Of a DNA stretch of 64,000 nt, positions 15,634 to 53,600 are shown piece by piece. Source of the stretch: an uncultured bacterium (GTDB lineage Bacteria; CSSED10-310; CAZUFC01); assembly GCA_964619725.1 (NCBI GenBank), contig CAZUFC010000009.1:58815-122814 (forward strand). The letters are read 5' to 3'. The position numbers and the translations under genes are program-made. The number at the start of each line of letters is the position of its first letter. The first letter of the stretch is position 1. The notes under the pieces were generated by a model, which did no database searches, was not told the origin of the DNA, and worked only from the letters and a program-made list of their open reading frames with translations.

Positions 15634-15640
15634 AAGGTCT

Positions 15641-16477: not shown

Positions 16478-16683
16478 TGTTAAGTCCGAATTGAAAATCA
16501 GCCTGCAAATAACTATAAAAGAAAATTGACTATTTCCTGAAAAGCAGGTAATAAAAATAAAAGGGTGGGGCCAGTCGAGTCATCACGTCGACCGATTTTT
16601 AATTTTACTTAGAAATCTTAAAATGACCCCGGGTTGATAAAAACAAAAAATTCTTTTTTCTAATTTTTCTATGCCAGTCAAGA

Positions 16684-18231: not shown

Positions 18232-18666
18232 ATTTTTCCGGCATTGATCAAAAAAGCTTCTTATAAAATTATAAAACGGCGCTTTTCATTTCGGATCGTT
18301 TCATTATTTCCTGAGCGCTCACATCAGGTTGCATCCCGCCCTCCCCAGGATTGACAAGCAGCCGGCAAAGGTTATAATGAAATACCGTTTTCCGATGGGA
18401 ATCGTAAAAGAAAAGCGGCATCCTGATCGCGACAAAAAATAATAGAATTTTCGAGCGTGATGACAGACTGTGTTGAAGGGATTGGATTAAAAAATATGGA
18501 TGCAAGAATGAACGAGGTCTTATCAGATGCGGTTTTATGAAGTCCTGGGGATTTCAGACTTGCCGTAGTTGCCGCCTGACAAAGCGCCTCTAAATGTATG
18601 AAGTTATGAAAATAAATCGTCATGATTTCTGAAGATATGGATGAGAAAAAGACTCACGGGATATAG

Positions 18667-20638: not shown

Positions 20639-20681
20639 GGAGCCTGAAACGACTCGAACTGAAAGATTGGGAACTAGTAAA

Positions 20682-23219: not shown

Positions 23220-23233
23220 CGGGGTATTTGACG

Positions 23234-24415: not shown

Positions 24416-25059
24416 GTGAAGTATTTATTTATGTTGAAGGTCCCAGCGATCAGCGCAGTATGAGGGAACTGTTTGATGAAGTGATGAGAGAATGCGAAAA
24501 AATGGGAACCGTAGTTGATTTTTTCCCGCTGAACGGGAAGGAGCCGCTTTTAAATAAAGGTCCTACAAAGGCATTGAATATTTTGAGGAACCGACCGAAT
24601 TCGTATGTATTCCTCGTCCCTGACCTTTATCCGCCCAACAAGCCGTTCCCGCATGCTGATTTCCAGGAATTGAGAAAAGAATTGAAGGCAAGATTCAACC
24701 GTGAAATTGAAAGAAAAGCCTGCGATGAGAGGCTTGCAGACCGCTTTTTCGTGCATTGTTTTAAACATGATCTTGAAGCGCTGGTTCTCGCCTCGGAAAC
24801 CGCTTTCCTCTCCAGGCTGGATAAGCCCAAGTTCTCTCGATCCTGGACCAGACCCGTTGAAAACCAGGACAGTAATAATCCGCCGAAACGCATTGTTGAA
24901 GCGCTGTTCAGAGATGCAGGCATGATATACAGGGACGTTGCGGATGCGCCCTGGATTCTGAAACGTTCCAGCCTGAATGAATTATGCGATAAATGCCCTC
25001 AGAATTTTAAACCCTTTGCGGTGGATATATTCCGTTTAATTGGAAGGAAGATATCATGA
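24412..25059 (+). CDS. DUF4276-family (TOPRIM-like) partner of the ATPase
   Basis: IYVEGPSD, HDLEALVLA, PVEN...PPK, KCPQNF; GTGA overlap with the ATPase. Confidence 0.75.
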   Translation: MSEVFIYVEGPSDQRSMRELFDEVMRECEKMGTVVDFFPLNGKEPLLNKGPTKALNILRNRPNSYVFLVPDLYPPNKPFPHADFQELRKELKARFNREIERKACDERLADRFFVHCFKHDLEALVLASETAFLSRLDKPKFSRSWTRPVENQDSNNPPKRIVEALFRDAGMIYRDVADAPWILKRSSLNELCDKCPQNFKPFAVDIFRLIGRKIS

Positions 25060-29393: not shown

Positions 29394-29405
29394 GAGGAAG
29401 AATCC

Positions 29406-32315: not shown

Positions 32316-32415
32316 TGACGGTCATACTTAAATTCCAATCAAATTTTTCTCTTTTGAAACCGATGCAATCCGACGTTTTTTTGCCCGGAATCAGCCTGCA
32401 GGAGGAGATATCAGG

Positions 32416-34470
32416 ATGAATCATAAACTGAAAGAGGTCTTCAGGGGTAAAGTCGTCAACAAGGCGCATACTATCAACACGGGGGTTGATGAGTTTCCCC
32501 GGTATGTCCTGGAATACCTGATCGACAACTACTGTTCCGAGGATACTTTTCATAAAGATATGGAAAAAGTCGTGAGAAGATTAAAGGAAACATTTGTGCA
32601 TGGAGCGGAAGCTGAGAAAATCAGGCATTATATCAGAGAACACCGAAGCCATTCAGTAATAGCAAGTCTGGAAGCACGTCTGGTTGAAACGGAGGATAAA
32701 TACTGGGGGTCCATTTCAGCGATAAACGAGAATTTCGTTAATATCCCTGAAAGCATTGTCCGTCAATATCCAATGCTGTTATCTGGCGGAATGTGGGGTA
32801 CGATAGACGTTACCTATGATGAGACCGAGATACATAACAAAAAAATCAGACCTTTTAAAGTTGAAGGATTCACTCCTTTTCAGGTCAGCGTTATAAATGT
32901 GGATGAGTTCATTGAGCGACGACGTGAATTTTCAACGAACGAATGGATAGATATTTTAATTAATTCATGTGGTCTTGATCCATCACGAATGAACCGAAGA
33001 CAAAAATTGCTGTATCTTTGTCGATGCATCCCGCTTGTAGAAACAAACGTTAATATGGTGGAACTGGCGCCCCGGGAGACCGGCAAGACATATCTTTATA
33101 GAAATATATCATACTACGCTCACGTGCTTTCCGGCGGTAAAGCTACTCCAGCCCAATTATTCATAAACTTGAACACAGGCAGAATCGGCGAGGTAGGGGT
33201 TCGGGATGCCGTTGTTTTTGACGAAATTGCGAATACCGACTTTACCGATCCGAAGTCTTTCGTGAGTATAATGCAGGGATATATGCAAGATGCAAAATTC
33301 AGCAGAGGCAAAAAAGAGATACTCGCTTTCGCCAGCTTGGTCTTCGTAGGCAATCTTGATGTCCAAGGTGATTTACCTCATGAGAAGTATTATCATCTCT
33401 TCGAACCGCTGCCGGATTTCCTTCAGGTTATTGCATTTCTGGACCGAATACACGGCTACTTACCCGGATGGGAAATCCCGAAGTTAACCCCTCAAAGTTA
33501 TTCGAAAGATTATGGGTTCATAACGGATTACTTCTGCGAGATAATGCATGAACTGCGGCGGTTTGATTTGTTGGGAAACGTACGGTCAGGATTTGAAATC
33601 GTCGACCATGCCGGCAGAACTCAGGGAATTTCAGGACGAGATCAACGGGCTGTATTAAAAACGACTTCTGGTCTATTGAAGCTTCTTTTTCCCGATGGAC
33701 ATATTACAGATGATGAACTGCAAGAAATCCTCAGTTTATCCTGCGAATTGCGCCAACGAGTGAGAAACCAGCTTCATCTGATCGCTCCGGGTGAATATGA
33801 CAACATCTCTCTGGGCGCACTCATGAAACCGGGTGATAAGAAAATTGTGCCGAAACTTCCCGACAGTCATCGCGTTCAGCGGATTACGATTCCCGATAAA
33901 CCTTCCATTGGAGAGGTTATAGGTTTGGCAGTCGAAGGAGATCATGGTTGTATTCTACATTTTGAGATGCAGGCAACACGAGGGACCGGACGTATCGTGC
34001 CGCTTGGCTCGATACAAAGGGTCATGCGGGAAAGTATTGAAGCGGCGGCTCAGTACATCAGGGCGAAACACGAAGACCTGGGGATAACGGCTGAATGGCG
34101 AAAGAGTTTTGACGTTGCCGTCCTGGCCACTTTTATGGGTGTTCCAAAAGAGGGACCTTCCGCAGGCATTACAATTGTTGCAGGAATTGTGTCAGCATTA
34201 AAAAAAGTCCCGATTAGAAACGATCTCGCTATGACCGGAGAGATAACGATAATGGGCAAGGTCCTGCCTGTCGGAGGTATCCAACAAAAAGTCAGGGCAG
34301 CTTTTGATGCGGGAGTCAAAGAAGTTATTCTGCCTGCTGATAGCCTGAAAGAAGCAGAGGGATTGCCTTCCTATCTGCTTGACGAATTAAAGCTGACTCC
34401 GGTCAATAACATTCAAATGGTATTAGAAAACTCGTTGCTGAATAACAATGTACCAAAAATAAAATCATAA
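32416..34470 (+). CDS. brxL: BREX Lon-like protease/MCM-like AAA+
   Basis: [54 protein letters not shown]...GGIQQK (Ser-Lys dyad). Confidence 0.92.
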
Positions 34471-40060: not shown

Positions 40061-41164
40061 TCACGGAGGCGTTGACCAGTCATAACGAATCCGTAAATCG
40101 TTCCTCCTGGAATGCCTGAGATATCCCTCGCGTTGCAGACGACCCGCAATAATGCCCGGAGCGATTCCAACATCAGCCGCAAACTTTTCTATAGATGCCT
40201 TCCCGAATGATCTCCGTCGAATAAAGACGGACCACTTATCAGACGAAACAAGCGTCTCAGCAGCAAAATCGTCAGCTTCATCTTCCATTTTTTTCCTTTC
40301 CCGGTTTCCTTCTTCGCATTCAACTATTACAGTCCGGCGGTCGTGTAAAACAACATGGCCCAGCTCGTGAAATAAACTGAACCAGAAAATGTCAGCCCAT
40401 TTGCCTCTTAACGTCATCATTACTACTATCCTGCCCCGGCCCAATGGAAATACGGCCCCGTTCACATAAGTTCCCGGAAAATGAGGACAAAGAGTGAAAG
40501 CTATTCCGCAATCAGCTAGAAGGCTCGTCAATTTCGGTAAAAAAACTTCCGGCGATTGAAACGTCATTTGCCTTATTTCTTCCAACGAATCTTTTACACG
40601 CTTCTTACTGAACTCTCTGCAAATGATCTTCCCTGCTTTCACTTCTCCCAACCTGAGCCAGGCAGCGACAGCTTCCGGCGACCTTTCCCTTCTGCTCCTG
40701 CCGCAACGGAAAGCAGCGGCATATCTTGCCACATTCTTTACATTATAAAGCGATGTAACCCCAAAAAACTTTTGCAGCGCTTTAACCTTATCTTCTCTTT
40801 TCGTATACTTTTTTACCGCTCCTAACTTTACCAGAGTCGAATAACAGAAAGGTCTGATCAAAAATGATTCTTCTTTCAGGCGTTCTCGTTCCTTCTCCTC
40901 CTGTCGGCGAGCCAGCGCTATACGATAATCCGATTCCAATCCCAACCAGATGTGCGCTGGAACATCCACAACTTTTTCCAGTTGAAGCGACGTACTCGGA
41001 GTAACAGCCTTCTTACCCTTGAAAATTGCGCTTAACTTACTCGCCGGCCTGTTCATTCGACGGGCTAATTCATCCTTCGACATACCCAGTTCATCCAGCA
41101 CTTCCTCCAGATACTCCCCAGGAGGAACAGGCAAATCAGAGCCGTAAGCCTGATCATTCGTCAT
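40061..41164 (-). CDS. higA: HigA-family HTH antitoxin fused to ImmA/IrrE metallopeptidase
   Basis: PPGEYLEEVL...LARRM HTH; FWFSLFHELGH (HExxH), EDEADDFA. Confidence 0.88.
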   Translation of the reverse strand: MTNDQAYGSDLPVPPGEYLEEVLDELGMSKDELARRMNRPASKLSAIFKGKKAVTPSTSLQLEKVVDVPAHIWLGLESDYRIALARRQEEKERERLKEESFLIRPFCYSTLVKLGAVKKYTKREDKVKALQKFFGVTSLYNVKNVARYAAAFRCGRSRRERSPEAVAAWLRLGEVKAGKIICREFSKKRVKDSLEEIRQMTFQSPEVFLPKLTSLLADCGIAFTLCPHFPGTYVNGAVFPLGRGRIVVMMTLRGKWADIFWFSLFHELGHVVLHDRRTVIVECEEGNRERKKMEDEADDFAAETLVSSDKWSVFIRRRSFGKASIEKFAADVGIAPGIIAGRLQREGYLRHSRRNDLRIRYDWSTPP

Positions 41165-41457
41165 AATGCTTGCTCTCCTCCTCAAGTCGCACAATCTCCA
41201 GTTTTGATCCCTCAAGAGTGAAAATAAGCCTGTAAAAACCGGTCAACTTTACCGCCCCATTGATCCTTTCGCGGTCCCTTGAGTTTGTGGCAGCGAAGTC
41301 CCGGTAATCGTCTTAATTCTTCCATATCTTTGGCGTTCCTGATAATATTCACCCTCTGTATGAACTTGCGTGCAACATCCTTTCCGTAAGCCTTTTCAGC
41401 TTCCCTGTGCTGCCTGTATCGCTTTTCAAGTTTTCGGGTCCTGAATCTGATCTCCAT
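41154..41457 (-). pseudogene. higB: HigB/RelE-family toxin with +1 frameshift
   Basis: Removing one G from the G4 run (C4 at 41255-41258) restores ...HKLKGPRKDQW-AVKLTGFYRLIFTLEGSKLEIVRLEEESKHYDE*, overlapping the higA start. Confidence 0.85.
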
Positions 41458-41590
41458 GACATCTGTTCCGTATGCGCTTCAATTCACCCTTCAGGTAAAG
41501 AATAATTTTTTATCCCCGTTAAGTCAAATTTATTTTACCTCATGGGTAAAAAAAGTTATAAAGACAAAACAAATCTCCTTGAAATTACAG

Positions 41591-41737
41591 GCATTGATCG
41601 AAAATGCGTATTTAAAGTTAACAATTCGACAGAATATCCCATCATTTTGTTTCTATTTCGATACCGATTGCGATACAGATTACTGAAACAAGCTGTCAAA
41701 AGTTTTGAAAGAAGTGTAACCCCGGTTTGATCAGTCC
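41591..41737 (+). repeat. ~147-bp dispersed intergenic repeat, copy A
   Basis: gcattgatcgaaaatgcgt...aacaattcgaca...gattactgaaacaa..tgtcaaaagtttt.aaagaag.gtaacc.cggtttgatcagtcc; colinear with 56642-56789. Confidence 0.85.
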
Positions 41738-41839
41738 CTATTTTCCTATGTACGTTAACGGCGAAATACGCCCCATCAACTCAATCCGTGAAACGACCAG
41801 AAAAGCGTCTCTAACCAAAAGGTCCGGAAGCTCCGCTTC

Positions 41840-41885
41840 GTCCGCAAAGTCCGCAATGTCCGCAGGGTCCGCAAGGACCGCAAAA
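41840..41885. repeat. 9-bp tandem repeat (gtccgcaNN x5)
   Basis: gtccgcaaa gtccgcaat gtccgcagg gtccgcaag gaccgcaaa. Confidence 0.8.
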
Positions 41886-42007
41886 TTCCTTCATCCCGGT
41901 CCACATCTCTCAACGCTTTCCAATCCAATAAATCCATACCCAACTCTTGCCAAAAAGACGTCGCCGGTCTATAATCTCCATGAAACATCATTCGAGGGGT
42001 TAATAAT

Positions 42008-45000
42008 ATGCACCGTCATGAAGCATCACAGGAAATACGCTGGCTTCACCTCTCCGATCTGCATTTCGGTTGCAGAGGTCAATCTGAAAGACATCAATTA
42101 AACAGTGAATTTGAAAAAAGCATAAAACAACATTTAAGCCAGGTAGGTCCGCCGCATCTGGTATTCGTGACGGGTGACATCGCCAATACGGGCGGAGTCG
42201 CCTCTGATGCAGAGTATGAAGAGGCGACGGAATTTTTTAACGAACTTCTGAACTGGTTGTCGTCGGAGGAGGGACGAAAACCGCTTCTGGTCCCGGCGCC
42301 GGGCAACCATGATGTGACGCGTCCCGATATGAAAAAAGATATGGATGCGGCGTATAAATACCTGGTCCTGAAACAGATGGACGATAAGAATAATCAGTTC
42401 GTTCAGAACCTGAAAAAAACTCTATGGGAAAGCAAAAATAAAAACGCCTCGTTTATTAAACCTCTCTTTGCCGCGTATGAATCCTGGTTCGATAAACATG
42501 TGTTTCCGCCGCTCCGAGAAGACAATCAAACAGCCGGCTTACACCGTTCATTTTTTCCGGGCGATTACAGTTTCAGATACGAACAAAACGGTTTCCGGCT
42601 GGGGGTGGTAGTCCTGAATTCATCCTGGGTCCAGTTTGACGACGACGATTACAATAAAAAACTTAACTTGCCTCCGCCTCAATTTCATGCTGCTCTGCCC
42701 GACAAAAAGAAACCCCTCCGGTTTTTCGACAGTTGCGATGATTCTCTGCTGCTGATGCATCATCCTCCGGAATGGTTATCGCCAGAGAGTTTAAAGGAAT
42801 TCAATTCCCATATTTACCTTCCCGAACGCTTCGCGGCCTGCCTTCACGGACATCTGCACAAGGGTTTCGTTTCAGTGCGAAGCGTATTCGGCAGCAAAGA
42901 GCGTTGTCCCATCCAGGCGCTTTCACTTTTCGGACTGGAGAATTACGGCACGAGCAATGTAAAAAGAATGTTCGGTTATTACTGGGGAAAAATAAGTAAA
43001 AACCGCGAATTGCGTATCTGGCCGCTGGTGCGGGTGGAACGCGGGAGCGACCGGTATGAATTCGACGTGGATACGAGATTCGAAAACCGTGAAAGCGACG
43101 GTTCTGTCCTGCTGCTGCGGCCGCCGGGAACCGGGTTAACGCACGATCCGCAGCCATTCATAAAACAACCCGCCGACCCGCTTCAATCAGAAATTGAAGA
43201 TTATATCGGATGGGCGAAGGATCACTACAGCGAGCTGGAAATGGTGGGGATCGGAGCCGGCAATTTGCGGCTCTCTTTTGAAGAAGTGTACGTTCCGCTG
43301 GAAATTTCGGTCAGAGAAGTCGATATGGGTAAAGAAGACGGCATGCCCTATCGAAGGTCCCAGGCTTTGAAAAAAACGATCGACGACCTCAGAGTAAAAG
43401 ACATTTTCAGTGAAATCGACGAGAAATATGAGCCGGCCATATTCGGCGAACCGGGCGCGGGCAAAACGACATCTTTGAAGAAACTCCAGCATCTTATTTT
43501 AACGCAAGGTCCGGAAAGCGCAGGATTGCCGAAAGGGACTGTTCCGGTGTTCCTCCGATTGCGCCGTATCGACAGGGAACTCCTGCAGGAACAAAATGAA
43601 CAGGCGCCGGCGCGGTTCATCCAGCAGGAACTGGACATGAACGCGCCGAACTGTTTTAAAAAGGATTTCGGCGAACGGTTATGGAAACGGGGAAATTTAC
43701 TTCTGCTCCTGGACGGACTGGACGAACTGGTGGATGAAGATGCCAGAAGCGCGGCATGCCGATTTATTGAAAATTGTATCCTTTCCAACAAAAGACGGGG
43801 AATCCGTTGCGTAGTGTCGTGCCGGTTAACGGGGTACGGCGGCAAAGTCCGTTTGAGCGGCCGGTTCCTGTGCCTGGACGTCAGACCCCTTAACGATGAA
43901 TTGCAGAAACTTCTGATCAAATCCTGGTTCAAAGCCGCCCGGCGCCAGAGCGTCGTCCTTAAGAGCAAATATCCTGAAGCGGACATAAGATCAGAATCGC
44001 AGGCGGAAGAGTTGATTAAAAGCCTGAAAAGCGAGCAATATTCCGTCCGCCAAATAGGCACACTTGTCGCTAATCCCCTGCTGCTAACCCTGCTCTGTTC
44101 GGTGAACCTGCAGAGAGGAAACATCCCCGTCAGAAGAACGGAATATTACCGCGAATGCATGCTGGTGTTACTCCAGAGATGGCCGCAAGAGAAAGAAAAC
44201 GCTCCGGTTCTCGACATCAATGATGCACTGGAAGTATTGCGAAACCTGGCGTTTATTCTGCATGATTCGGAAAGAAAAGAAGACGTGACGCAAGTGGAAT
44301 TCCGAAATATCGTCCAGCCTCTCTTGCAACATATGAAGCACAGAATCCAGCAACTTCCCCAACCTGAAGATTTGCTCAACTGGTTCCACAAACAGGCGGG
44401 CATACTTTCCCGTTACGCGGAAAATCAGTACGGATTCATGCACCTGGGCATTCAGGAATATCTTACAGCCGTCCATGCAGCCAAGGCGGGTGAACGACAG
44501 GTCAAAGCGCTGGCTCATAAACTAGGCGACGACTGGTGGAAAGAACCCATTCTCCTGATGCTGGGGCTGCCCGAACACAACGTTTTTAAACCTTTCATGA
44601 TCGAAGTCGTCAAATCGGATGCGCTTACCGCCCAACATGATCTGCTCCAGCAATGCCTGAATGAGACCCATGCTCTCGATGCCGATGTCTTTATAGAAGT
44701 TCTGCAGAATGAAAAGGAGTCCACGGAAAAAAAAGAAGCAATCCTGCGCCTTTTCATGAACAGGAATATCCGGGCTGTCGACTCCGCAGCCCAAAACCTG
44801 GTTCATCATTCGGAAAAACGGCTGGCGGAACTCGCAAGACGCTTCTGCCCGGTCGAAGAAATGCCGGCAGCAAGACGGCGAGGGCTGACCGAAAAAGGAC
44901 AAGACTTCACCGATAAAATATGCGGCATCCGGTTCCTCCATGTCCGGGCAGGCCGGTTCAAAATGGGGGATGACAACGGGAATGAATGGGAAAAACCGGA

Positions 45001-45628
45001 GCATCAGGTCAGGCTCTCACCCTACTGGCTGGCGGAAACGCCCGTCACCAATCAGCAATATGAAGTTTTCCTGAAAGCGACGGGATATCAGGAACCGACT
45101 TATTGGAGAGACAGGAAATACTCCGATCCCAGGCAGCCCGTCGTGGGCGTCAACTGGTTCGATGCCTGCGAATTCTGTAAATGGCTGAAAGAAAAAATAA
45201 AACTGGACGTAACTTTGCCCACGGAAGCGCAATGGGAATTCGCTGCCAGAGGAATAGATTCATATACTTATCCCTGGGGCAACAACCTACCAGATGAAAC
45301 AAGAGCCAGCTATAGTAAAAATTCAGGAAATAAACCGGCACCGGTCGGCTCCTTTCCGGCAGGTAAGGGACCCTTCGGACATCTCGATCTGGCCGGTAAT
45401 GTATGGGAATGGTGTTTGGATAGGTGGAGCGAGAACGCGTATGAAAAACGAAAGGAAGAAGTTGCTGATCCGATCACATCTGACGGCGACAAAGATTGGC
45501 GTGCGCTCCGCGGCGGCGGGTGGAGTGATGCTTCGTACCTGCGTTCCTCGTATCGCAACAGGGACCATGCTGGTGACCGGCGCAGGAGCATCGGCTTTCG
45601 TGTCGGGGCGGCGCCGGCGAGCCTTTGA
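42008..45628 (+). CDS. DGR target 1: calcineurin-like metallophosphoesterase - NACHT NTPase - FGE-sulfatase/C-type-lectin domain
   Basis: LHLSDLH, TGDIA, PGNHD, MHHP, HGHLH; GEPGAGKTT, LLLDGLDE, NPLLL, HLGIQEYL; PVTNQQY, LPTEAQWEFAARG, DLAGNVWEWC, RGGGW...IGFRV. Confidence 0.93.
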   Translation: MHRHEASQEIRWLHLSDLHFGCRGQSERHQLNSEFEKSIKQHLSQVGPPHLVFVTGDIANTGGVASDAEYEEATEFFNELLNWLSSEEGRKPLLVPAPGNHDVTRPDMKKDMDAAYKYLVLKQMDDKNNQFVQNLKKTLWESKNKNASFIKPLFAAYESWFDKHVFPPLREDNQTAGLHRSFFPGDYSFRYEQNGFRLGVVVLNSSWVQFDDDDYNKKLNLPPPQFHAALPDKKKPLRFFDSCDDSLLLMHHPPEWLSPESLKEFNSHIYLPERFAACLHGHLHKGFVSVRSVFGSKERCPIQALSLFGLENYGTSNVKRMFGYYWGKISKNRELRIWPLVRVERGSDRYEFDVDTRFENRESDGSVLLLRPPGTGLTHDPQPFIKQPADPLQSEIEDYIGWAKDHYSELEMVGIGAGNLRLSFEEVYVPLEISVREVDMGKEDGMPYRRSQALKKTIDDLRVKDIFSEIDEKYEPAIFGEPGAGKTTSLKKLQHLILTQGPESAGLPKGTVPVFLRLRRIDRELLQEQNEQAPARFIQQELDMNAPNCFKKDFGERLWKRGNLLLLLDGLDELVDEDARSAACRFIENCILSNKRRGIRCVVSCRLTGYGGKVRLSGRFLCLDVRPLNDELQKLLIKSWFKAARRQSVVLKSKYPEADIRSESQAEELIKSLKSEQYSVRQIGTLVANPLLLTLLCSVNLQRGNIPVRRTEYYRECMLVLLQRWPQEKENAPVLDINDALEVLRNLAFILHDSERKEDVTQVEFRNIVQPLLQHMKHRIQQLPQPEDLLNWFHKQAGILSRYAENQYGFMHLGIQEYLTAVHAAKAGERQVKALAHKLGDDWWKEPILLMLGLPEHNVFKPFMIEVVKSDALTAQHDLLQQCLNETHALDADVFIEVLQNEKESTEKKEAILRLFMNRNIRAVDSAAQNLVHHSEKRLAELARRFCPVEEMPAARRRGLTEKGQDFTDKICGIRFLHVRAGRFKMGDDNGNEWEKPEHQVRLSPYWLAETPVTNQQYEVFLKATGYQEPTYWRDRKYSDPRQPVVGVNWFDACEFCKWLKEKIKLDVTLPTEAQWEFAARGIDSYTYPWGNNLPDETRASYSKNSGNKPAPVGSFPAGKGPFGHLDLAGNVWEWCLDRWSENAYEKRKEEVADPITSDGDKDWRALRGGGWSDASYLRSSYRNRDHAGDRRRSIGFRVGAAPASL
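45501..45622 (+). repeat. DGR variable region VR1
   Basis: Aligns to TR with 9 substitutions at TR adenines, 2 T>G changes (each immediately 5' of an AAC) and a 3-nt indel near the 5' end. Confidence 0.95.
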
Positions 45629-45655
45629 TTCTTTTGATTCATTGTTTTCCGGGGT

Positions 45656-45674
45656 CCAGGGGCGAAGCCCCTGG
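45656..45674 (+). promoter_or_regulatory. DGR target-recognition hairpin/cruciform downstream of VR1
   Basis: ccaggggc-GAA-gcccctgg: 8-bp GC-rich stem with 3-nt loop, 27 nt after the stop codon. Confidence 0.85.
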
Positions 45675-45685
45675 TCGCTGCAAAT

Positions 45686-45759
45686 GACATTTTTCGACAC
45701 TTTTATTGTCGTTTTGTCATGCTATAAAAGACAAATTGACGAACTTTTGTTATTTTGTT
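45686..45759. promoter_or_regulatory. GACA/TGTC box array (putative operator) downstream of VR1 and upstream of the HTH gene
   Basis: GACA-N6-GACA-N7-TGTC-N4-TGTC, then GACA-N4-GACG-N6-TGTT-N4-TGTT (45730-45759). Confidence 0.55.
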
Positions 45760-45804
45760 ATCTTGATTTGATAATTTAACTCTCTTTATTCGAAAGGGAT
45801 CATA

Positions 45805-46425
45805 ATGAAATTAAAGCTTTCCGAAGCCGCCAGAACGATGGGTAAAACCCGGCGGCAAGTGCGGTATCTGATTAAAAAGGATCGTTTGAAAGCGCACAAA
45901 GAAGGCGGAAGATGGTTCGTCGACTCACGCGACTTACCGATGACCGATGCGCAACGTTCAGCCTCGGCAGACAGGTCGCGGCTGGTTAAGGAAACACTGG
46001 AACAGTCTCTTGATGAAATTAATTCAGTTCTTACGAAAACGGATAAAAAATTTTATTCCATTCGCGATCTTCGGGCTTACCAGGCGGGTGAATCTGTCTA
46101 CAGGACAATGGTTCAGCGGTTTGGAGGAGATGATGAAGGCGTAAGGATGTTCAAGGATTCTTTGATATCGCTCTGTTACGGTTGCCACAGTTTTCACCCG
46201 GAGGAAAAGGCTGCCCATTATTCTGCAGCCAGGAAAGCTGCCGCTGCGACAGTGATTCATGTTTTACTGGACGGCGAAAACGAGGACGCGGTAAGGCAAA
46301 AAACGGCATCCATGATTGAACAGAGTTATATTCCGCGTCTTACCAGTCTGATCAGAACGTCGGAGAGAAAATCAAAGTCCTTTCGATTCAAGCAGTTCGG
46401 AGGGCGTCGGTATCCGGGGAGTTAA
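45805..46425 (+). CDS. DGR accessory: excisionase/MerR-like HTH (HTH_17) fused to a four-helix-bundle-like domain
   Basis: LSEAARTMGKTRRQVRYLIKKDRLKAHKEGGRWFV; C-terminal YSIRDLRAYQ...GCHSFHPEEKAAHYSAARKAA resembles the IVP/Avd four-helix-bundle pattern. Confidence 0.7.
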   Translation: MKLKLSEAARTMGKTRRQVRYLIKKDRLKAHKEGGRWFVDSRDLPMTDAQRSASADRSRLVKETLEQSLDEINSVLTKTDKKFYSIRDLRAYQAGESVYRTMVQRFGGDDEGVRMFKDSLISLCYGCHSFHPEEKAAHYSAARKAAAATVIHVLLDGENEDAVRQKTASMIEQSYIPRLTSLIRTSERKSKSFRFKQFGGRRYPGS

Positions 46426-46427
46426 TA

Positions 46428-46766
46428 ATGGAATACCTTTCATCGCCTGTTTATCGGGATACTTTTGCTCTGTTCGGAGTTATTCTGGAGGAATTCGACG
46501 TGGAGAAAGGATATCCCTTTTTCCGGAAGGCATTGATGGAAAAGGCGGCGTATTTGCTCGAAGTGATTGTAAAAACATTCGATATTGCCGACAGAACCGA
46601 TTTTTTGATCGAAGCTGACGAAACATTAAAAATTTTAAGGTCTTATTTGTCGATGTCTTATGAACTTCAAATAATTTCCGAAGACGACTACCTGGCTTTT
46701 GCTGAACAGACGGATTCAATAGGACGACAAATAGGCGGTTGGCTTAAAAAAGAAAAATTGGTATAA
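46428..46766 (+). CDS. avd: DGR accessory variability determinant (Avd-like four-helix bundle)
   Basis: 112 aa, helical, C-terminal IGRQIGGWLK motif; directly upstream of TR. Confidence 0.88.
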   Translation: MEYLSSPVYRDTFALFGVILEEFDVEKGYPFFRKALMEKAAYLLEVIVKTFDIADRTDFLIEADETLKILRSYLSMSYELQIISEDDYLAFAEQTDSIGRQIGGWLKKEKLV

Positions 46767-46791
46767 ACAGTTTGAGGGCTCGTCCGGAAAA

Positions 46792-46926
46792 GTCCCTTTA
46801 TGTGCGCTCCGCGGCGGCGGCTTTTGGAATGATGCTTCTAACCTGCGTTCCTCGTATCGCAACAGGAACCATGCTGATAACCGTAACAGGAACATCGGCT
46901 TTCGTGTCGGGGCGGCGCCGGCGAAC
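46792..46926 (+). ncRNA. DGR template repeat (TR)
   Basis: Non-coding AAC-rich copy of both VRs (reads VPLCALRGGGFWNDASNLRSSYRNRNHADNRNRNIGFRVGAAPAN); 24 adenines; lies between avd and RT. Confidence 0.95.
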
Positions 46927-47040
46927 ACGCTGATGATTTGGCTTTAATCACCGTGCAGGATGAGTCCTGACGCTAATGCGTCAAATAAGCATCAACCGCC
47001 CGTTCCAGTAATCGAAAGGTGAACGTCCGGGCGGTTTTAT
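46927..47040 (+). other. structured spacer 3' of TR (probable DGR RNA Sp region)
   Basis: Short inverted repeats: cagga/tcctg, tgacgc-taat-gcgtca (46968-46983), aaccgcccg/cgggcggtt (46994-47036) followed by T run. Confidence 0.55.
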
Positions 47041-47096
47041 AATTTTCTGGAAAACGATTCATCGTATAATTCATGAAAAAACGAAATCGGTAAGAA

Positions 47097-48098
47097 ATGA
47101 AAAGACACGGAAGGCTGTTCGACAAAACAGCATCATTAACGAATCTATGGAATGCATGGCGTGAATTCAGAAAAGGAAAACGTGATCGTCCGTCGGTACG
47201 TCGGTTCGAGCTGGACTGCGATCGTAATATAGTTCAATTGAAAAGGCTTTTGAATCAGAATAAGTATCATCACGGTTCCTACCGCCTGTTTTTTGTACGT
47301 GAACCGAAAGTCCGGCTGATAGCGGCGGCTTCAGTAAGAGATCGCGTCGTTCATCATGCCGTTCATCAGATTCTATCGCCTTTGATGGACCCATCGCTTA
47401 TCCATACGACTTTCGCTTGCCTGCCGGAACGAGGCACGCACCGCGCCGCCATCCATTTCATGAATGCACTAAGATCCTTCGATTATGCGCTAATGCTGGA
47501 CATAAGACATTATTTCTTAAGCATTGACCGTAATATTCTTATGACGCTGATGCAACGAAAAATAAAGGATTCCCGTATTCTGGAACTGCTGCAAAATATT
47601 GCTGACAGCGGCGCTTACATCTATCAAATAAAAAAAGTTAAACAAGAATTAAATTTGCCCCGCGATTTCCCGCCTCCAGAGTGCGGCCTGCCGATCGGAA
47701 ACCTGACGAGTCAATGGTGGGGCAACCATTACCTTTCGGGACTGGATCATTTTATTAAAAGGGATTTGAAGATACCTCACATGCAGCGTTACATGGACGA
47801 CCTGGCGCTGTTTCATAATTCCAAAAAAAGACTTAAAAAGGCGTCATCAACGCTGAAAACCTGGCTGATGAACGAACGGCGGCTTTATTTGAAGGAGCCT
47901 TTTGCAGAGGTGCGTTCTTCCAGAGGCAAATTTAATTATCTGGGATTCAGAATTACCCGCGGCGGAATAACCCCTTCCCGGAAATTGATGATTAAGATGC
48001 GGAGGCGGTTGAAACACATCGCGGACAAAGGAGATGCCGAGCTTTTAAAACGTTCGATTGAGTCATACAAAGGCATTTGGAAGTTTTTACATAGTTGA
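47097..48098 (+). CDS. DGR reverse transcriptase
   Basis: MKRHGRLF start, EPKVRLI, RDRVVHHA, LDIRHYFLSI, GLPIGNLTSQ (DGR-type GxxxSQ), RYMDD, YLGF; 333 aa with no maturase/endonuclease domain. Confidence 0.96.
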   Translation: MKRHGRLFDKTASLTNLWNAWREFRKGKRDRPSVRRFELDCDRNIVQLKRLLNQNKYHHGSYRLFFVREPKVRLIAAASVRDRVVHHAVHQILSPLMDPSLIHTTFACLPERGTHRAAIHFMNALRSFDYALMLDIRHYFLSIDRNILMTLMQRKIKDSRILELLQNIADSGAYIYQIKKVKQELNLPRDFPPPECGLPIGNLTSQWWGNHYLSGLDHFIKRDLKIPHMQRYMDDLALFHNSKKRLKKASSTLKTWLMNERRLYLKEPFAEVRSSRGKFNYLGFRITRGGITPSRKLMIKMRRRLKHIADKGDAELLKRSIESYKGIWKFLHS

Positions 48099-48104
48099 CG
48101 ATGT

Positions 48105-48134
48105 GACAAAATGACAATTATTTGTCCGTTTGTC
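48105..48134. promoter_or_regulatory. GACA/TGTC box array downstream of VR2
   Basis: GACA-AAAT-GACA-ATTATT-TGTC-CGTT-TGTC; same 4/6/4 spacing as 45730-45759. Confidence 0.6.
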
Positions 48135-49872
48135 AGCTTAATTGTCCGAACGTATGTCCTTTTTTGTTATTTTTAGCGACCAGGGGCGCCGCCGCGACAC
48201 GAAAGCCGATGCGCCTGAGACGGCGACCAGCATGGTCCCCGCTGCGATACGAGGAACGCAGGTGAGAAGCAACATCCCAAAAGCAGCCGCCGCGGAGCGC
48301 ACATAAAGGGACCCCTTCAAATTCACCGACATCATCCACACACCATTCCCAAACATTACCGGCCATATCAAGATGACCGCCGGGCGCTGCGCCTGCCGGA
48401 TAAATACCGACAGGCGTTGGATGATCGACATTATTGTCGAAATTAGCGCGTTCTTCATCCGGCTCATCATCGCCCCATGGATATTTACCTCCTCCGGGGT
48501 CTGTCGCGGCTTTTTCCCATTCATTACCGGTCGGAAGCCTGAAATTTTCGTTTTTAACTTTCGACAACCAACTGCAATAGGCAGTGGCTTCGTACCATGA
48601 AATGCCGGTAACGGGCCAGTTGGGCGTTTCCAATTGCTCCGTCCACCGGTCCGGTTTACTCCAATTTTCCTTGATTCTAACTTCCCATGAATCGGGCCAG
48701 AATTCCGGGTTATCGTAGCCGTCATTTTTAATGAACTCGTCGTATTCCATGACGGTAACGGGATACTTGCCTAAACGCAACTCGGGCATACCGGGAACCG
48801 GCAGCCAATTTTCATCCCGTTTATGATGGTGAAAACGGGGATCGCCGGCCCTGCCTAATGCTTCGGCAGCCTTGATCCTGGTTTCCACGGGCACTTTTGC
48901 GGCTCCTTCATGTTCAAAAATACCCATGACCAGCGACCTGGCTTCCTGCCAACCGAGGTCAGGGGGCGGATCATATTTGTATGCTCCAAGGACCATTAAA
49001 AGTCTGCCGATGACTCCGACGGCTTCCGCTGCCCTTACCAGTTTTTGCTCCTCCGGCGCGTGTTCGTATGTTTTCAGAATTTTCTCCAGGAAGAAATCCA
49101 GCGTTTTTCGTCTGTCCGGCATTAAGAGCGCGGCGAAATGGTCGACGACTTCTGTCCATTGTCGGTCGTATATTTTTTCCGACAGGACGGTCCACCATCC
49201 TTCCGGGCCGTCGATATTCAGTCGGCCGGTAAGTTCCCTGGCAGCATAATGTTCCTGGAAGGTCAAATGATCGAATCGGAGTTGTTCCTGCCCTTCTTTT
49301 TTTTCTGCCTGGACGATAATGCCGCTTTCCAGCATCTCGAACCGGAGGAATGCTTCAGCCCTGGTAGATGTTAAACTTTCATCGGCATGAAACCGGCTTA
49401 TGAAAGCGTCCGTCAATTGTTCGGCGGCCCAGGGCAGTTCGGCTACCACCCGTTTACCGTCTTTGTGGTCGGTCATCCGAAAGGCCAATGTTTTAAGGCA
49501 TTCCTCGGTAAAAGGCCTGTCGTATTCAAATTCTTCTCTTTTTTCTTCACGAGCTTTCAGCATCCATCGCAACACCGCTTTCAGCAGATCGGCCTTGCCT
49601 TTTGGCAAACGTCTTTCATGCCAGTGTACAACGCAAAGACTGGTCAGCATGACCGGGTTACGGGCCATACGGCGGATATCGGACGACTCGACCTGTCGAA
49701 GAGATTCATCCAGAGGTCTGCCGGGGATCGAACCGAATGCATCCATACTGACGGGATGATGACCCATGGTACGGACGGCCTCGACCACCTTCTCGCGATG
49801 CTGTATTAAATCTTCGCCGGTCGATGATATGAATACTTTTAGAATATTGTGTCTGTTTCGATTCCCAATCAT
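48133..49872 (-). CDS. DGR target 2: truncated DUF4062 - post-NACHT helical region - FGE-sulfatase/CLec (NTPase core missing)
   Basis: KVFISSTGEDL..HREKV...PVSMDAF...ESSD joins directly to IRRMARNPVMLTSLC; HLTFQEHYAA; LPTGNEWEKAA, DMAGNVWEWC. Start taken at ATG 49872. Confidence 0.85.
   Translation of the reverse strand: MIGNRNRHNILKVFISSTGEDLIQHREKVVEAVRTMGHHPVSMDAFGSIPGRPLDESLRQVESSDIRRMARNPVMLTSLCVVHWHERRLPKGKADLLKAVLRWMLKAREEKREEFEYDRPFTEECLKTLAFRMTDHKDGKRVVAELPWAAEQLTDAFISRFHADESLTSTRAEAFLRFEMLESGIIVQAEKKEGQEQLRFDHLTFQEHYAARELTGRLNIDGPEGWWTVLSEKIYDRQWTEVVDHFAALLMPDRRKTLDFFLEKILKTYEHAPEEQKLVRAAEAVGVIGRLLMVLGAYKYDPPPDLGWQEARSLVMGIFEHEGAAKVPVETRIKAAEALGRAGDPRFHHHKRDENWLPVPGMPELRLGKYPVTVMEYDEFIKNDGYDNPEFWPDSWEVRIKENWSKPDRWTEQLETPNWPVTGISWYEATAYCSWLSKVKNENFRLPTGNEWEKAATDPGGGKYPWGDDEPDEERANFDNNVDHPTPVGIYPAGAAPGGHLDMAGNVWEWCVDDVGEFEGVPLCALRGGCFWDVASHLRSSYRSGDHAGRRLRRIGFRVAAAPLVAKNNKKGHTFGQLS
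48185..48312 (-). repeat. DGR variable region VR2
   Basis: Gapless alignment to TR with 13 substitutions at TR adenines and only 2 at non-A positions (ggc>tgc; ggg>gcg near the 3' end). Confidence 0.95.
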
Positions 49873-50171
49873 AGCGCAGCCTTCGTTTTTAAAATCTACT
49901 TTTGCAAATTCATGCTCGGTCGGTTGAAAGATAGCATATTTCCCGCAGGTGAGGCAAGGATTGTGCCGGATGCCCGGTCGCGCCATAATTACTTGATGCC
50001 TGTCGAAAAGTTATCGAAGACAGCAGCAATCGGTATCGCAGGCGAAACAACTATTTTCCCGCAAATTTCAACCAAAAACCTGATGTTTGCTCGCTGAAAT
50101 CATTGCAAATTTGGGGTGTTGAGCAAATATGGGTATTTTGTTGTTTCAGATGGGGCATTCTCAATCTGAAA

Positions 50172-50230
50172 AAGGACGAAGGGACCAAGGGACTTAAGGG
50201 ACCTAAGGGACCTAAGGGACAGAAGGGACT
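50172..50230. repeat. 9-bp tandem repeat (aagggacNN x~6)
   Basis: aagggacc aagggactt aagggacct aagggacct aagggacag aagggact. Confidence 0.8.
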
Positions 50231-50308
50231 CCTGGAAGATACAATCGTTTTTATAAGTAAAAACCTTCATTTGAAAATTAAGCGTTTTGAGAAAGATACG
50301 GAATTTTT

Positions 50309-50520
50309 GGACTGATCGTACCGAGGCTGCATCTTTTCATATAGCCTTTGACTGATAGAAATTTCCATTAAAAACTGATCCCTGCCCTCAATTGCCTGTT
50401 TGAAGACTTCACCGCCGGCTTTTCATCAGTGGCCATTTATTTCTATACCGAGATTGACCCCGATTACCGAAACAAAATTTTAAACGTTTTGAAAAGTGTA
50501 ATCCCGGTTGTTGATCAGTC
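50309..50520. repeat. degenerate member of the dispersed repeat family (two right-type ends in inverted orientation)
   Basis: ggactgatcgtaccgagg... at 50309 and gattaccgaaacaa...cccggttgttgatcagtc ending 50520. Confidence 0.6.
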
Positions 50521-50672
50521 GCAAAAAAACACGTCCGCTGGTCCCGCTTTATCCGCTGAATAATCAGGATTATACTTGACTTAGAATACTCAAAGACGAC
50601 TTTTGTCCAGTGTTTTATTATTGTGCGTCCCGGCATAAAAATTGTGCGGTTTTTATTTATTTCCAAACCGCT

Positions 50673-53600
50673 TCAATCCACACGGATTTTTTCGGAAGAA
50701 GAACTTTCTATGTCACCTGTTCCTACTGTTCTGAGGAAGTATTCGCCTGAGACTTCCTTCTGGGAAAGAGGCAACAGGAAGTTAGTCGCCTCGGTGAAAC
50801 CTGCGGGTCGGCTGCCGTACCATCTTATTTTGTACAGGCGATATCCCTTTATATTTTTTTGTTTGACGGCATCCCAGGCTATTTTTATTTCTGTTTCCGT
50901 TTTGGTCATACGGATGTTTTTCGGGGGCGGCGGAGGATATTCAGCCTTACCGAAAACCGGTTCGCTGAAATCGCTCAGGAGCATATCCGAATCGACGGCG
51001 ACGATACTGTATCGGAATTTATCGCCTGGCTTCACGTTTGTATCCGTAAATTCCCTTTCATGTCCCGGTAACGCAGCATATTCGTAGAGTTCCTTGTTTT
51101 CTTCCGCCCTGAATATCCGGAATTGACTTATTTCCTCGTCGCCGGAGTCATCATATCGCCAGGTCAGCCTTATGATTCCCGCCAGATCACGACTCGCCTG
51201 GAGATCGACCGGTGCGGGAGGATTCTGCCTGGCCCCGGCTTTCACTGTTGCTGAAGGTTCACCTTCTATATTGGCCGTATTGACTGCCGTTATCCTGTAG
51301 TAATATTGCTCGTCGTCCCTTACGGGTATTCCTTCATCGCCCAGGTCTACGTATGAATCAGCTTTTCTGTCGTTGATTTCCGCTATCATTTGAAATTCAT
51401 TTTGCTGCGAGCTTCTTCGATATAAACGGTAACCCCTGACGTCCGGATGCTTATGAGATATCCATTGCAGGCTGATCCTCCTGGCCTGCGGCGCAGCCGC
51501 TCGAAATCCTCCGGGGGGTTCCGGCGGTCCAGCGGTTATTATTTTCACTGTCTCAGAAAAAGGTCCTTTTTGGTCCGAACCGTCAAATGCCGCTATTTTG
51601 TAATAATAGATGGTTTGATCCTGCAATCCCGCGTCGACGAAATCATTCTTTTTCCTTCCCTTTATACGTTGAATCTCTTTAAAATCCGGTTCTTTTTCTT
51701 TTTTCCTTAATATACTATAGCCGAAAGCCCATTTTTCCGGAACTGCAGTCCATTTCAACGACGCCTGACGAACGCGGCCGGATTCGCCGGTCAGCCCTAC
51801 CGGTGAAGATAATGCGCCTCCTATCACGATTTCCACGGGCGGCAGTGTCAGTATTTCGCCGGCGAATTCTTGAATCGACTGAGTTTTCAAAAATAGTTTT
51901 GTTTCAAACAAACCTGAGTAATCAGTCAGTCTTAATTCAGTCTCCATATTATCCCAATCGATAATTTTTTCCGTTTTGCGATAACCTGAGGCAGCATCAC
52001 CGATCAGCAGCCTCCATTCCTGTTTCGGGAATTCACTCTTGAAGCTCCATGTCAGAACCAGCCGGTCATGCTCGATGAATTCATAATCTTGAAGCCTGGG
52101 CCGATTCATACCGCCTTCGAACGTGATCGCTTCGGGATCGGAAAAACCGCTTTCTTTCTCACCGAAAACCGCCTTCATTCTGTAATAATAAACCGTCCCC
52201 TCTTTCAGCCTGTCGAACATCCGTGATCTGTCGATAAAGGTCCTTTGTTCGCTGTCGCTTATTCTCCCGATCAGCTTATAATCGCCGTCATTTTCTTCCG
52301 CCCGGAAAATGATCCATCCCTTGACCTTCTGAAGCTCAGGACAATGCCATTTCAGTTTAAAACTGTATTCATCCGGTTGTTTGATCTCCAGCCCGCAGGG
52401 GCATACCTCATCATCTGAGCCGTCAATGATAGCCGCTTCAATTTTTTCGCCGTCGGCAGGGAAGAGCGTTTCATTTAATCCGTAATCCTCCGTCCTGATG
52501 GAATAGGAAATCGAATCTCCGCTCAGTTCCTTTCCAGGCAGTATTCCATAGAACCGACAGCCGTCGGTACCATGTAAGAACGTATTACCCGTTTTTCCGT
52601 TTACTTCATACCTCAATTCAACTTCCTTTACGCCTGAGTCTTCAATCACTTCGACCTGCACCGGCCAGTCAGCGTATCGCACCATAAATGTCCTGGGAAC
52701 ATGAAAAACCGACGGCGGAGATGATTCTTCCGCTTTAACGGGAATGCTGAAAAAACCTTGTTCCGGCGGCAGGCGAGCTGCATTGCCGTAAATGTCTTCC
52801 GCTTTGATGCAGTATTCGACTTGATCGCAAAGCGTCATCAGCCCGGATGCCGAAAAATGAAAACCATCTCCATCGACGGCAAACGGTTGCGTTACTATTT
52901 TTCCGTCATCCGTTTTAATCTCCGCAAAAACCCTTCCGATTCGACTGTCGTCCCCTATATCCGCATCTAATTCCATCACCCGGCCATACTTGAATTCTTC
53001 CGGCGGATTATGAACTATTTCCGGCGGTTGCAAATCGACCGGCGGCAGGGAAGACCTTCTTTTTGGCTCCGTCAGACTGAAACGCTCCGCCGGCATTCTC
53101 CTCTCCGCTTTAAACTTCAACTCAATAACTTCTGTATCGCCCGGCAATAATGTGAATTCTCTGACTATATCCTTCATACCGCTTTTTACCGCTCGAAGGG
53201 TCCTCTGACCCGCCAGAACATGCTTCAGCACCAACGGGGCTTCTCCCTTGTATTCACCGTCGATCCATACCTGCACGCTCTCTTCGGCCGTCCTGACTGA
53301 AACCGCTCCGGTTACTTTTTCAAGTGAGTTGCGGAATATGTCCATCACTTGCGGAGCAAACAGTTCCGGGTCCGGCCTGTAATCAGGGTCAAGCAACAGC
53401 AATTCTTCAAAATATAACTCCGCCTCATGCTTTTTTCCCAGCCCAATAGAGTTCAAAGCCAGGAAAAAATTGGCCCGGATCAGTTCCTTCTGCGGGAGAG
53501 GCGATTCAGTCCTCAACGTTTTCATCGCCCGCTGCAAATAACCGCCGGCCCTGTCGAAACGGCCTTCTTCAAAGGCTTCTATCCCGTGTTCCAGGAAGGA

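Follow-up and report, generated by a model that had tools for sequence, protein, structure and literature searches.

Introduction

Diversity-generating retroelements (DGRs) of clade 5 are reported mostly from multicellular bacteria, in which several often occur in one genome (Dore et al. 2024, PMC10907252). According to the main text of that paper, TIR or peptidase effectors are found on some clade 5 targets, degenerate loci and repeats have a part in shaping the loci, and two-target DGRs acting on STAND proteins that bear a C-type lectin (CLec) fold are represented by DGR 3 and DGR 6 of Thiohalocapsa PB-PSB1, one PB-PSB1 target being listed with PF00149 'Metallo' and NACHT. DGR-variable FGS domains have been linked to NTP-dependent conflict systems (PMC7159879), and DUF4062 has been reported as a TIR-like NADase often located beside NACHT (bioRxiv 10.64898/2026.05.01.722283). 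Here we describe a DGR of this kind from an uncultured bacterium of the GTDB lineage CSSED10-310. The stretch analysed, referred to below as the window, comprises 64,000 nt of contig CAZUFC010000009.1 (positions 58,815 to 122,814 of the forward strand, assembly GCA_964619725.1), and the element consists of a reverse transcriptase (RT) cassette flanked by two target genes, Target 1 (T1) and Target 2 (T2).

Analysis of this locus led us to the reading that it is a chromosomal DGR of cellular type aimed at STAND/NLR-like proteins, with one sound target (T1) and one decaying target (T2); we assign to it a probability of roughly 85%. A first-pass annotation of the same DNA had already called a DGR, and this identification agrees with a DGR-type RT, the presence of Avd, and adenine-specific differences between the template repeat (TR) and the variable repeats (VRs). 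It had also remarked that the general idea is not new, as the two-target STAND-CLec elements of PB-PSB1 (PMC10907252) illustrate.

The host genome was recovered from a microbial mat metagenome and comprises 9.17 Mb in 344 contigs, with 90.9% completeness and 6.5% contamination. Thirteen of the 30 nearest genomes compared share its phylum and none its family or genus, and a close copy of the RT was absent from these 30 genomes (best E 1.4e-28). Four DNA runs of one microbial-mat study were also compared, in the form of assembled contigs, in which rare variants are hidden.

Organization of the cassette

The list of open reading frames (ORFs) together with a repeat search indicated the order T1 on the plus strand, a hairpin, a gene for a helix-turn-helix (HTH) protein, avd, the TR, the RT gene and, convergent to these, T2 on the minus strand. 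The features are as follows.

42008-45628, plus strand: T1, 1206 aa, from the ORF and Pfam matches
45501-45620, plus strand: VR1, the last 40 codons of T1, from the repeat alignment
45604-45619, plus strand: GC-only run at the 3' end of VR1, resembling an initiation of mutagenic homing (IMH) site, identical to TR positions 46908-46923
45656-45674, plus strand: hairpin CCAGGGGC-GAA-GCCCCTGG, from folding, 36 nt past VR1
45805-46425, plus strand: HTH accessory gene, 206 aa, from an HTH_17 match and a structure model
46428-46766, plus strand: avd, 112 aa, from Pfam, NCBIfam and PHROGs matches
46792-46924, plus strand: TR, non-coding, between avd and the RT gene, from the alignment, with 22 adenines in 46792-46919
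46925-47096, plus strand: spacer between TR and RT gene, predicted to form stem-loops and presumably included in the DGR RNA, from folding
47097-48098, plus strand: DGR RT, 333 aa, RVT_1, with YMDD at residues 232-235 and IGNLTSQ at residues 200-206
48133-49986, minus strand: T2, 617 aa from the first ATG, from the ORF and Pfam matches
48185-48312, minus strand: VR2, within the 3' end of T2, an inverted repeat of the TR

This gene order is the one given in the first-pass annotation. The end of T2 had been placed there at 49872, which corresponds to Met39; comparison with paralogs makes this the likelier start, while the full ORF reaches 49986. The predicted fold of the TR-RT spacer was not significant (z -1.4), and a search of Rfam over 41000-50700 gave no match at E<=1.

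The same order of target, HTH gene, avd, RT and convergent target was also found in the compared loci L017, L018, L020, L023 and L105; within the host genome, a paralogous cassette on contig C26 shows it as well. L105 (1881-10224), a metagenome contig and the single locus obtained from a scan with a two-sequence alignment, is matched to Avd over only about 64 aa and to the RT over 60 aa, and looks like a degenerate locus in which both NLR-like targets and the HTH gene were kept.

Reverse transcriptase and Avd

The deduced RT is an RVT_1 protein in Pfam, and its best match among solved structures was 8ub7_A, the bRT of a Bordetella phage (E 2.9e-38), the entry 8ub7 being a Bordetella phage DGR ribonucleoprotein as judged by its Avd B chain and its title. 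The best group II intron RT was matched at E 1.1e-14 and the best retron-type RT at E 8.7e-10, so that a grouping with either class, which the first-pass annotation had named as the finding that would speak against a DGR, was not seen and bRT matches far better. The YMDD and IGNLTSQ (motif 4) sequences are invariant across three RT paralogs of the genome, and an SQ dipeptide in motif 4 has been given as a typical feature of DGR RTs (PMC3521204). Judged by its sequence, the RT is of the DGR type and not of the group II intron or retron type. Assignment to the group II intron RTs by NCBIfam was rejected, with 110 bits against a cutoff of 300 in a collection that holds no DGR RT model. The closest RTs, with 50-55% identity, are from metagenome-assembled genomes (MAGs) of Phycisphaeraceae, Ca. 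Multivoradales and Acidobacteriota, and an RT from a Chromatiaceae MAG shows 41%.

The product of the gene upstream of the TR matched Pfam bAvd (E 1.9e-8, 35.2 bits against a cutoff of 40), NCBIfam DivGenRetAVD (E 1.2e-9, below cutoff) and the PHROG 'Avd protein of DGR' (E 7e-10). A profile built from seven Avd sequences recovered, among solved structures, bAvd 4dwl (E 3e-5) and 8ub7_B (E 2e-4).

Template and variable repeats

The repeat search showed that the TR is 88% identical to VR1 in direct orientation and 88% identical to VR2 in inverted orientation. Alignment of VR2 with the TR revealed 15 differences in 128 nt, 13 of them at TR adenines and two at G (46819 and 46910), exactly the 13 adenine and two other sites counted in the first-pass annotation; with 22 adenines in the 128 nt this bias has a hypergeometric p of 2.1e-10. 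In VR1, eight adenine differences were found over TR positions 46802-46924 and a ninth at 46925, just beyond the GC run, together with two T>G changes (46839, 46884), a further T difference (46824) contingent on the placement of the indel, and the deletion of one codon (3 nt) located 4 nt before the first variable adenine. The earlier tally for VR1 of nine adenines, two T sites and a 3-nt indel is right within one site, depending on where the repeat is taken to end. In the 100 nt of VR1 past the indel, adenines account for 8 of 10 differences (p 5.8e-5).

The TR adenines occupy positions 1 and 2 of AAC/AAT codons. Seven adenines are changed in both VRs, four to the same base and three to different bases, while one is changed in VR1 only and six in VR2 only. 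Because of these shared, private and unlike changes, VR1 and VR2 are not copies of each other, in keeping with the earlier claim that the two carry different substitutions. The two clear T>G changes of VR1 are synonymous third positions. They lie directly 5' of changed adenines (46839-46840, TA>GT; 46884-46886, TAA>GCG) and may be errors made by the RT after a mismatch rather than later drift.

The host genome holds other DGRs. The cassette on C26 (L009, G000:C26:26001-38000) has two targets in the same gene order and an RT 59% identical to that of the window, and its TR/VR differences are all at adenines, 18/18 in one pair and 19/19 in the other (37/37). A further TR lies by the RT of C280 (G000:C280:363-491) and corresponds to a VR on C25:73926-74136, with 19 of 20 differences at adenines; the separation of the two may reflect either a remote target or a break between contigs. 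Adenine-specific TR/VR pairs mark at least three DGRs, namely that of the window (on C9), that of C26 and the C280-to-C25 pair. DGR-type RT matches were obtained on C9, C26, C280 and C226, while C274 and C27 gave weaker RT matches, and the genome holds 21 FGE C-termini. Further VRs for the TR of the window were looked for in the assembly and none was found. One more contig, C155, carries a gene for a TIR-NACHT-FGE protein of 1116 aa and a second FGE protein (L014:485-3835), with no RT seen on that contig.

T1 and T2 have paralogous FGE domains (42% identity over 214 aa), and gene conversion between such C-termini, with the adenine bias due to chance, could in principle produce repeats of this kind. 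We give it practically no credence: the counts for VR2 (p 2e-10) already refute it, the TR does not code for protein and is placed between avd and the RT gene, and the same adenine pattern recurs in the C26 and C280-C25 pairs.

Target 1

Analysis of the deduced T1 amino acid sequence with Pfam revealed a Metallophos domain (aa 11-285, E 1.6e-9), a NACHT domain (PF05729, aa 478-643, E 1.3e-10) and a C-terminal FGE-sulfatase/CLec domain (aa 977-1199, E 3e-50), with a helical region between NACHT and FGE. The metallophosphoesterase motifs DxH, GD, GNHD, HH and GHxH are present in the sequence, as are a Walker A motif, GEPGAGKT, at 480 and a Walker B motif, LLLLLDGLDE, at 564; these are the defining motifs of the respective domains. 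T1 is an intact metallophosphoesterase-NACHT-FGE/CLec protein, which is the effector-NACHT-CLec layout proposed in the first-pass annotation, including the NACHT hit on which that proposal depended. The same full layout was found beside related RTs in L017, L018 and L105, and on contig C23 of the host genome (1250 aa).

Residues 11-294 of T1 match the first ~240 positions of NCBIfam DS8_antiphage (E 1.5e-24) and of PADLOC PDC-S60 (E 3e-27), the score being far under the whole-protein cutoff (85.8 against 790 bits). T1 was considered as a member of DS-8/PDC-S60 and rejected, as the effector module alone matches.

Target 2 and the 3' ends of the variable repeats

The domain scan, which had been proposed for both targets, gave NACHT for T1 and none for T2. 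In T2, Pfam identified DUF4062 at aa 50-104, covering profile positions 1-55 of 82, and FGE-sulfatase/CLec at aa 386-598 (E 1e-41), and the residues between the two correspond to the helical region that follows the NTPase. Neither a match to an NTPase family in Pfam nor a Walker A motif on reading the sequence was found in T2.

The closest paralogs of T2 are the two targets of the C26 cassette (~51% identity, 1000 and 1008 aa), which are both full-length DUF4062-NACHT-FGE proteins with a complete DUF4062 (positions 1/2-81). Alignment with these paralogs revealed that T2 jumps from the DUF4062 part to IRRMARNPVMLT, which in the paralogs is located ~390 residues further on, past the NTPase core. 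On account of this jump T2 is regarded as a DUF4062-NACHT-FGE protein shortened by an in-frame deletion, which by alignment took away the last part of DUF4062 and the entire NTPase core. The junction falls between aa 104 and 105 (~49675/49674), and contigs of two runs (X1 record 7, X2 record 16) read across it without differences. In the Acidobacteriota relative L019, ~1.2 kb lie between the DUF4062 piece and the remainder of the gene.

A second lesion was found at the 3' end of VR2. VR1 ends in the GC run of 16 nt, identical to the TR, with the 8-bp hairpin downstream, and the VR1 of the window and both VRs of C26 (VRA and VRB) are followed at 35-40 nt by the hairpin CCAGGGGC-GAA/GGA-GCCCCTGG, so that both hairpins of C26 are intact. 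VR2, on the other hand, runs from GGCGCC directly into CCTGGTCGCT, that is, the 3' arm of the hairpin and the next five bases, the fusion being at 48185/48184. The ~54 nt missing here comprise the last part of the GC run, the spacer, and the hairpin's 5' arm and loop, and the flank of VR2 folds no better than shuffled sequences (z +1.7). Contigs of two runs (X1 record 6, X2 record 15) likewise cross this fusion point with no difference, and since both T2 junctions occur in two runs from different samples an assembly artefact is unlikely. The first-pass annotation had described the element as a complete two-target DGR of NACHT proteins; neither 'complete' nor the plural could be upheld, given a T2 without NACHT match and Walker A and a VR2 flank without hairpin.

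The 8-bp stem CCAGGGGC/GCCCCTGG was also detected at four of the six nearest RT loci of other phyla, namely at L017:9127, L018:6655 and 9122 (behind both targets), L019:1004 and L022:4454. With at most three substitutions allowed, a stem match was found in 7 of 80 loci, the other three having imperfect stems. The stem is conserved in sequence, and not in structure alone, across MAGs of different phyla, and the loop varies. In the phage element BPP-1, homing was 'severely but not completely' impaired once the stem-loop had been deleted (PMC12875486). Since VR2 has lost its hairpin and GC end, this result suggests that VR2 would now be a poor or dead acceptor, and most likely it receives cDNA poorly or not at all.

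T2 is most likely a decaying remnant that was formerly diversified. It could instead have been kept by selection as a sensor-only protein, a diversified CLec on a helical stalk that would serve as decoy, partner or regulator of full-length NLR-like proteins. The two deletions are in frame, the ORF is intact and the junction occurs in two samples, and inactive decoy copies have been discussed for such conflict systems (PMC7159879). However, no other orthologue without NTPase was seen, the relatives in C26, L017, L018 and L019 being full length; the second lesion removes a homing element and not protein sequence, which fits decay; and 55 of the 82 DUF4062 positions are unlikely to fold into a TIR-like domain. 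A selected sensor-only T2 therefore appears rather doubtful to us.

Proposed mode of action and present state of the element

If the element works as its parts suggest, the avd-TR-spacer-RT unit would be transcribed into RNA, RT and Avd would copy the TR into cDNA with misincorporation opposite adenines, and the cDNA would replace the last 40 codons of the target, with the GC-rich VR end and the hairpin that follows it as guides. The Asn codons at the tip of the CLec (FGE) domain would thereby be recoded. T1 would be a cytoplasmic receptor with a metallophosphoesterase as effector, NACHT as switch and a variable CLec as sensor, in which a ligand bound at the variable tip may lead to NTP-dependent oligomerisation and turn on the phosphoesterase. 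T2 was diversified in the past and has since lost its effector end, its NTPase and the homing hairpin. The HTH gene would provide a third DGR protein, with an Avd-like bundle, common to the closest RT relatives only.

Several observations weigh against the reading of a DGR with one sound and one decaying target. Both Pfam and NCBIfam place Avd below their curated cutoffs. T2 retains an uninterrupted reading frame of 617 codons, in which each of the two non-adenine changes of VR2 alters the protein, and it could be kept by selection. Non-adenine differences occur in both VRs and VR1 lacks a codon; no variation of VR1 or VR2 was seen in the contigs of the four runs, which hide rare variants, and VR2 48185-48289 was identical in a second sample. 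The element may have been idle for some time.

The non-adenine differences of VR1 and VR2 are at different sites and therefore originated in the VRs rather than in the TR. As cDNA copies non-adenine positions faithfully, they represent change since the last homing, or rare RT errors. Since the C26 cassette shows no non-adenine difference among 37 and both VRs of the window show some, the element of the window looks less recently active. The whole element might on these grounds be a fossil, with T1 now a receptor of fixed specificity, to which the codon deletion in VR1, the 37/37 of the C26 paralog and the invariant contigs would also conform. Against this, the RT, Avd, the HTH gene, the TR and the GC run and hairpin of VR1 are all intact, the T>G changes of VR1 could be RT errors given their position 5' of changed adenines, and contigs cannot reveal rare variants. 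We regard a fossil as possible but less likely than not.

HTH accessory gene

The first-pass annotation had described the gene between T1 and avd as encoding an HTH and a four-helix bundle, and both were recovered, by an HTH_17 match in Pfam (E 3e-5) and by a structure model. The C26 paralog is 44% identical. A homologue search with the single protein returned itself alone, while a two-sequence profile compared with 1.84 billion representatives gave 707 clusters at E<=0.001 and 352 at E<=1e-10, mostly of proteins with 175-215 aa. Of 73 aligned members of the family 72 match HTH_17, and no Pfam family covers the C-terminal part. The model built from the 73-sequence alignment (pLDDT 93.4) shows a winged helix at aa 1-44, a long helix at 48-76 and a four-helix bundle at 90-199. 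The family carries a near-invariant G-C-H motif at residues 124-128 (G126, H128), and K135, R143 and E172 in the bundle.

Comparison of the modelled bundle (aa 84-199) with 48,161 solved chains gave 2gsc (Z 14.4), 2rld (Z 12.0) and the Avd chains 4dwl and 8ub7_B (Z 11.6) as four of the top six, and 2gsc and 2rld are also matched by the Avd sequence profile. Alignment of the HTH family with Avd by hhalign indicated no relation (probability 0.5%), and Z scores of 12-14 are common for helical bundles, both of which speak against a kinship with Avd; a Foldseek search of the PDB with a shallow model of the protein gave nothing at E<=0.001. Owing to the hhalign result and the ease with which such Z scores are reached, the Avd-like fold predicted for the bundle is taken as a lead and not as a result.

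A survey with hidden Markov models detected the HTH gene in 7 of 81 loci (full length in L017, L018, L021, L023 and L105, partial in L020, weak in L095) and Avd in 74 of 81. Where present, the HTH gene lies between target and avd, and it occurs in the closest RT relatives only. Neither the main text of PMC10907252, its supplements apart, nor a search of the DGR literature yielded a description of this gene. It accompanies the nearest RTs in different phyla and makes a concrete candidate for a DGR component not studied so far. One could imagine that the HTH protein is a target-site factor, its bundle joining Avd-RT and its winged helix binding the CCAGGGGC/GCCCCTGG hairpin and so picking the genes that are rewritten, in which case loss of the VR2 hairpin would retire a broken receptor and T2 might persist as a frozen sensor-only decoy; this scheme is speculative and we think it quite improbable.

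Neighbourhood and flanking repeats

The flanks of the cassette contain the following further features.

41590-41740, strand not assigned: copy of a dispersed repeat (~150 nt), left flank of the cassette, from repeat copies across the genome
41947-41975, plus strand: weak sigma-70-like promoter match upstream of T1, 11 of 12 positions
50170-50520, strand not assigned: copies of dispersed repeats, right flank of the cassette, from repeat copies across the genome

Promoter-like sites numbered 12 in the region against 10.1 in shuffled sequences, which is no excess, and terminator scan counts in the region likewise did not exceed those of shuffles. No tRNA gene was found in the window.

The ~150-nt repeat, with runs of GATACC/CGATxC-like units, occurs in more than 500 copies on 230 of the 344 contigs and has no Rfam match. 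Its depth reaches ~1000 in the mat runs, the contigs of which break at repeats. It flanks both the cassette of the window and that of C26, an arrangement that may be due to chance because the repeat is so dense. Joints that would represent an empty site across the cassette (for example 41662 to 50370) were rejected, as they lie in a repeat with hundreds of copies.

Upstream of the cassette, BREX-type genes are located at 20667-34470, with matches to PglX (850 aa, E 1e-79), PglZ (E 4e-11) and BrxL (E 3e-167), and among them a HEC-01-like ATPase pair (23156-25059) and an unassigned gene for 1445 aa (25056-29393). The BrxL gene ends at 34470, 7.5 kb before T1, which corresponds to the distance of ~7.5 kb noted in the first-pass annotation. 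In six ORFs at 8357-19824 no PADLOC model for BrxA, BrxB or BrxC was matched at E<=1e-6. Directly upstream of T1, on the minus strand at 40061-41215, a gene encodes HTH_3 and an M78 (ImmA/IrrE-like) peptidase, with matches to PD-Lambda-2_B (E 6.5e-36) and also to CapP.

These neighbours bear on the function of T1, for which the first-pass annotation had suggested an immune receptor. T1 might alternatively serve in signalling or regulation, as a STAND protein that the DGR tunes, rather than as an anti-phage receptor: a regulatory role has been proposed for cyanobacterial DGR targets (PMC7517822) and, according to the main text of PMC10907252, no experiment ties CLec-STAND proteins to defence. 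We consider this unlikely in view of the effector matches to DS8_antiphage and PDC-S60, partial or below cutoff as they are, the neighbouring PglX, PglZ, BrxL, HEC-01-like and PD-Lambda-2_B-like genes, and the TIR or DUF4062 (TIR-like NADase) effectors of sister targets in the genome. An adaptive-like immune role of the element, as suggested in the first-pass annotation, is hypothetical.

Comparison with described systems

The published picture is unchanged by this locus, which adds a well-resolved further example of a DGR aimed at NLR-like receptors, in a mat bacterium of a sparsely sampled phylum. Like the PB-PSB1 DGRs (PMC10907252), it has two targets flanking an RT cassette, C-terminal CLec/FGE domains with the VR and a central NACHT/nSTAND NTPase, and it shares with them the presence of several DGRs per genome, degenerate loci, and surrounding repeats or transposons. 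It differs from them in that a metallophosphoesterase is fused directly to NACHT-CLec in T1 and a DUF4062 remnant begins T2, in that one target is without NTPase and hairpin, and in the presence of an accessory gene whose product joins an HTH to an Avd-like bundle. T1 fits the two-target layout of a single CLec with a central STAND NTPase, T2 has the CLec without the NTPase, and the full-length paralogs and relatives of T2 fit. The RT would be expected to fall in clade 5D of Dore et al.

The BPP-1 DGR (bRT, bAvd, Mtd) resembles the element in its related RT and Avd, its adenine specificity, the AAC codons of the TR, the VR at the C-terminus of a CLec and, as described in PMC12875486, a GC-rich VR end followed by a stem-loop. 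In contrast to BPP-1, the element is chromosomal, its targets are predicted to be cytoplasmic NLR-like proteins instead of a tail fibre, the hairpin is located 36 nt past the VR and not immediately after it, and there are an extra HTH gene and two VRs.

T1 shares with the antiviral NACHT/Avs STAND proteins the effector-NTPase-sensor layout and the Walker A and B motifs, but its sensor is a DGR-variable CLec and not TPR or other repeats. With DS-8/PDC-S60 it shares aa 11-294, matched to the first ~240 model positions, and differs in the rest of the protein. T2 and the C26 paralogs begin with DUF4062 like the DUF4062 ('Swarozyc'/NIR) defence proteins (bioRxiv 10.64898/2026.05.01.722283), although in T2 the domain is cut to profile positions 1-55 of 82.

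A sound and a retired target thus stand side by side in one cassette, a natural test case for the cis elements that a VR needs. Compared with the main text of PMC10907252, the supplements of which may show some of these features, the locus is set apart by the metallophosphoesterase-NACHT-CLec fusion, the retired second target, and the accessory gene for a protein with an HTH and an Avd-like bundle.

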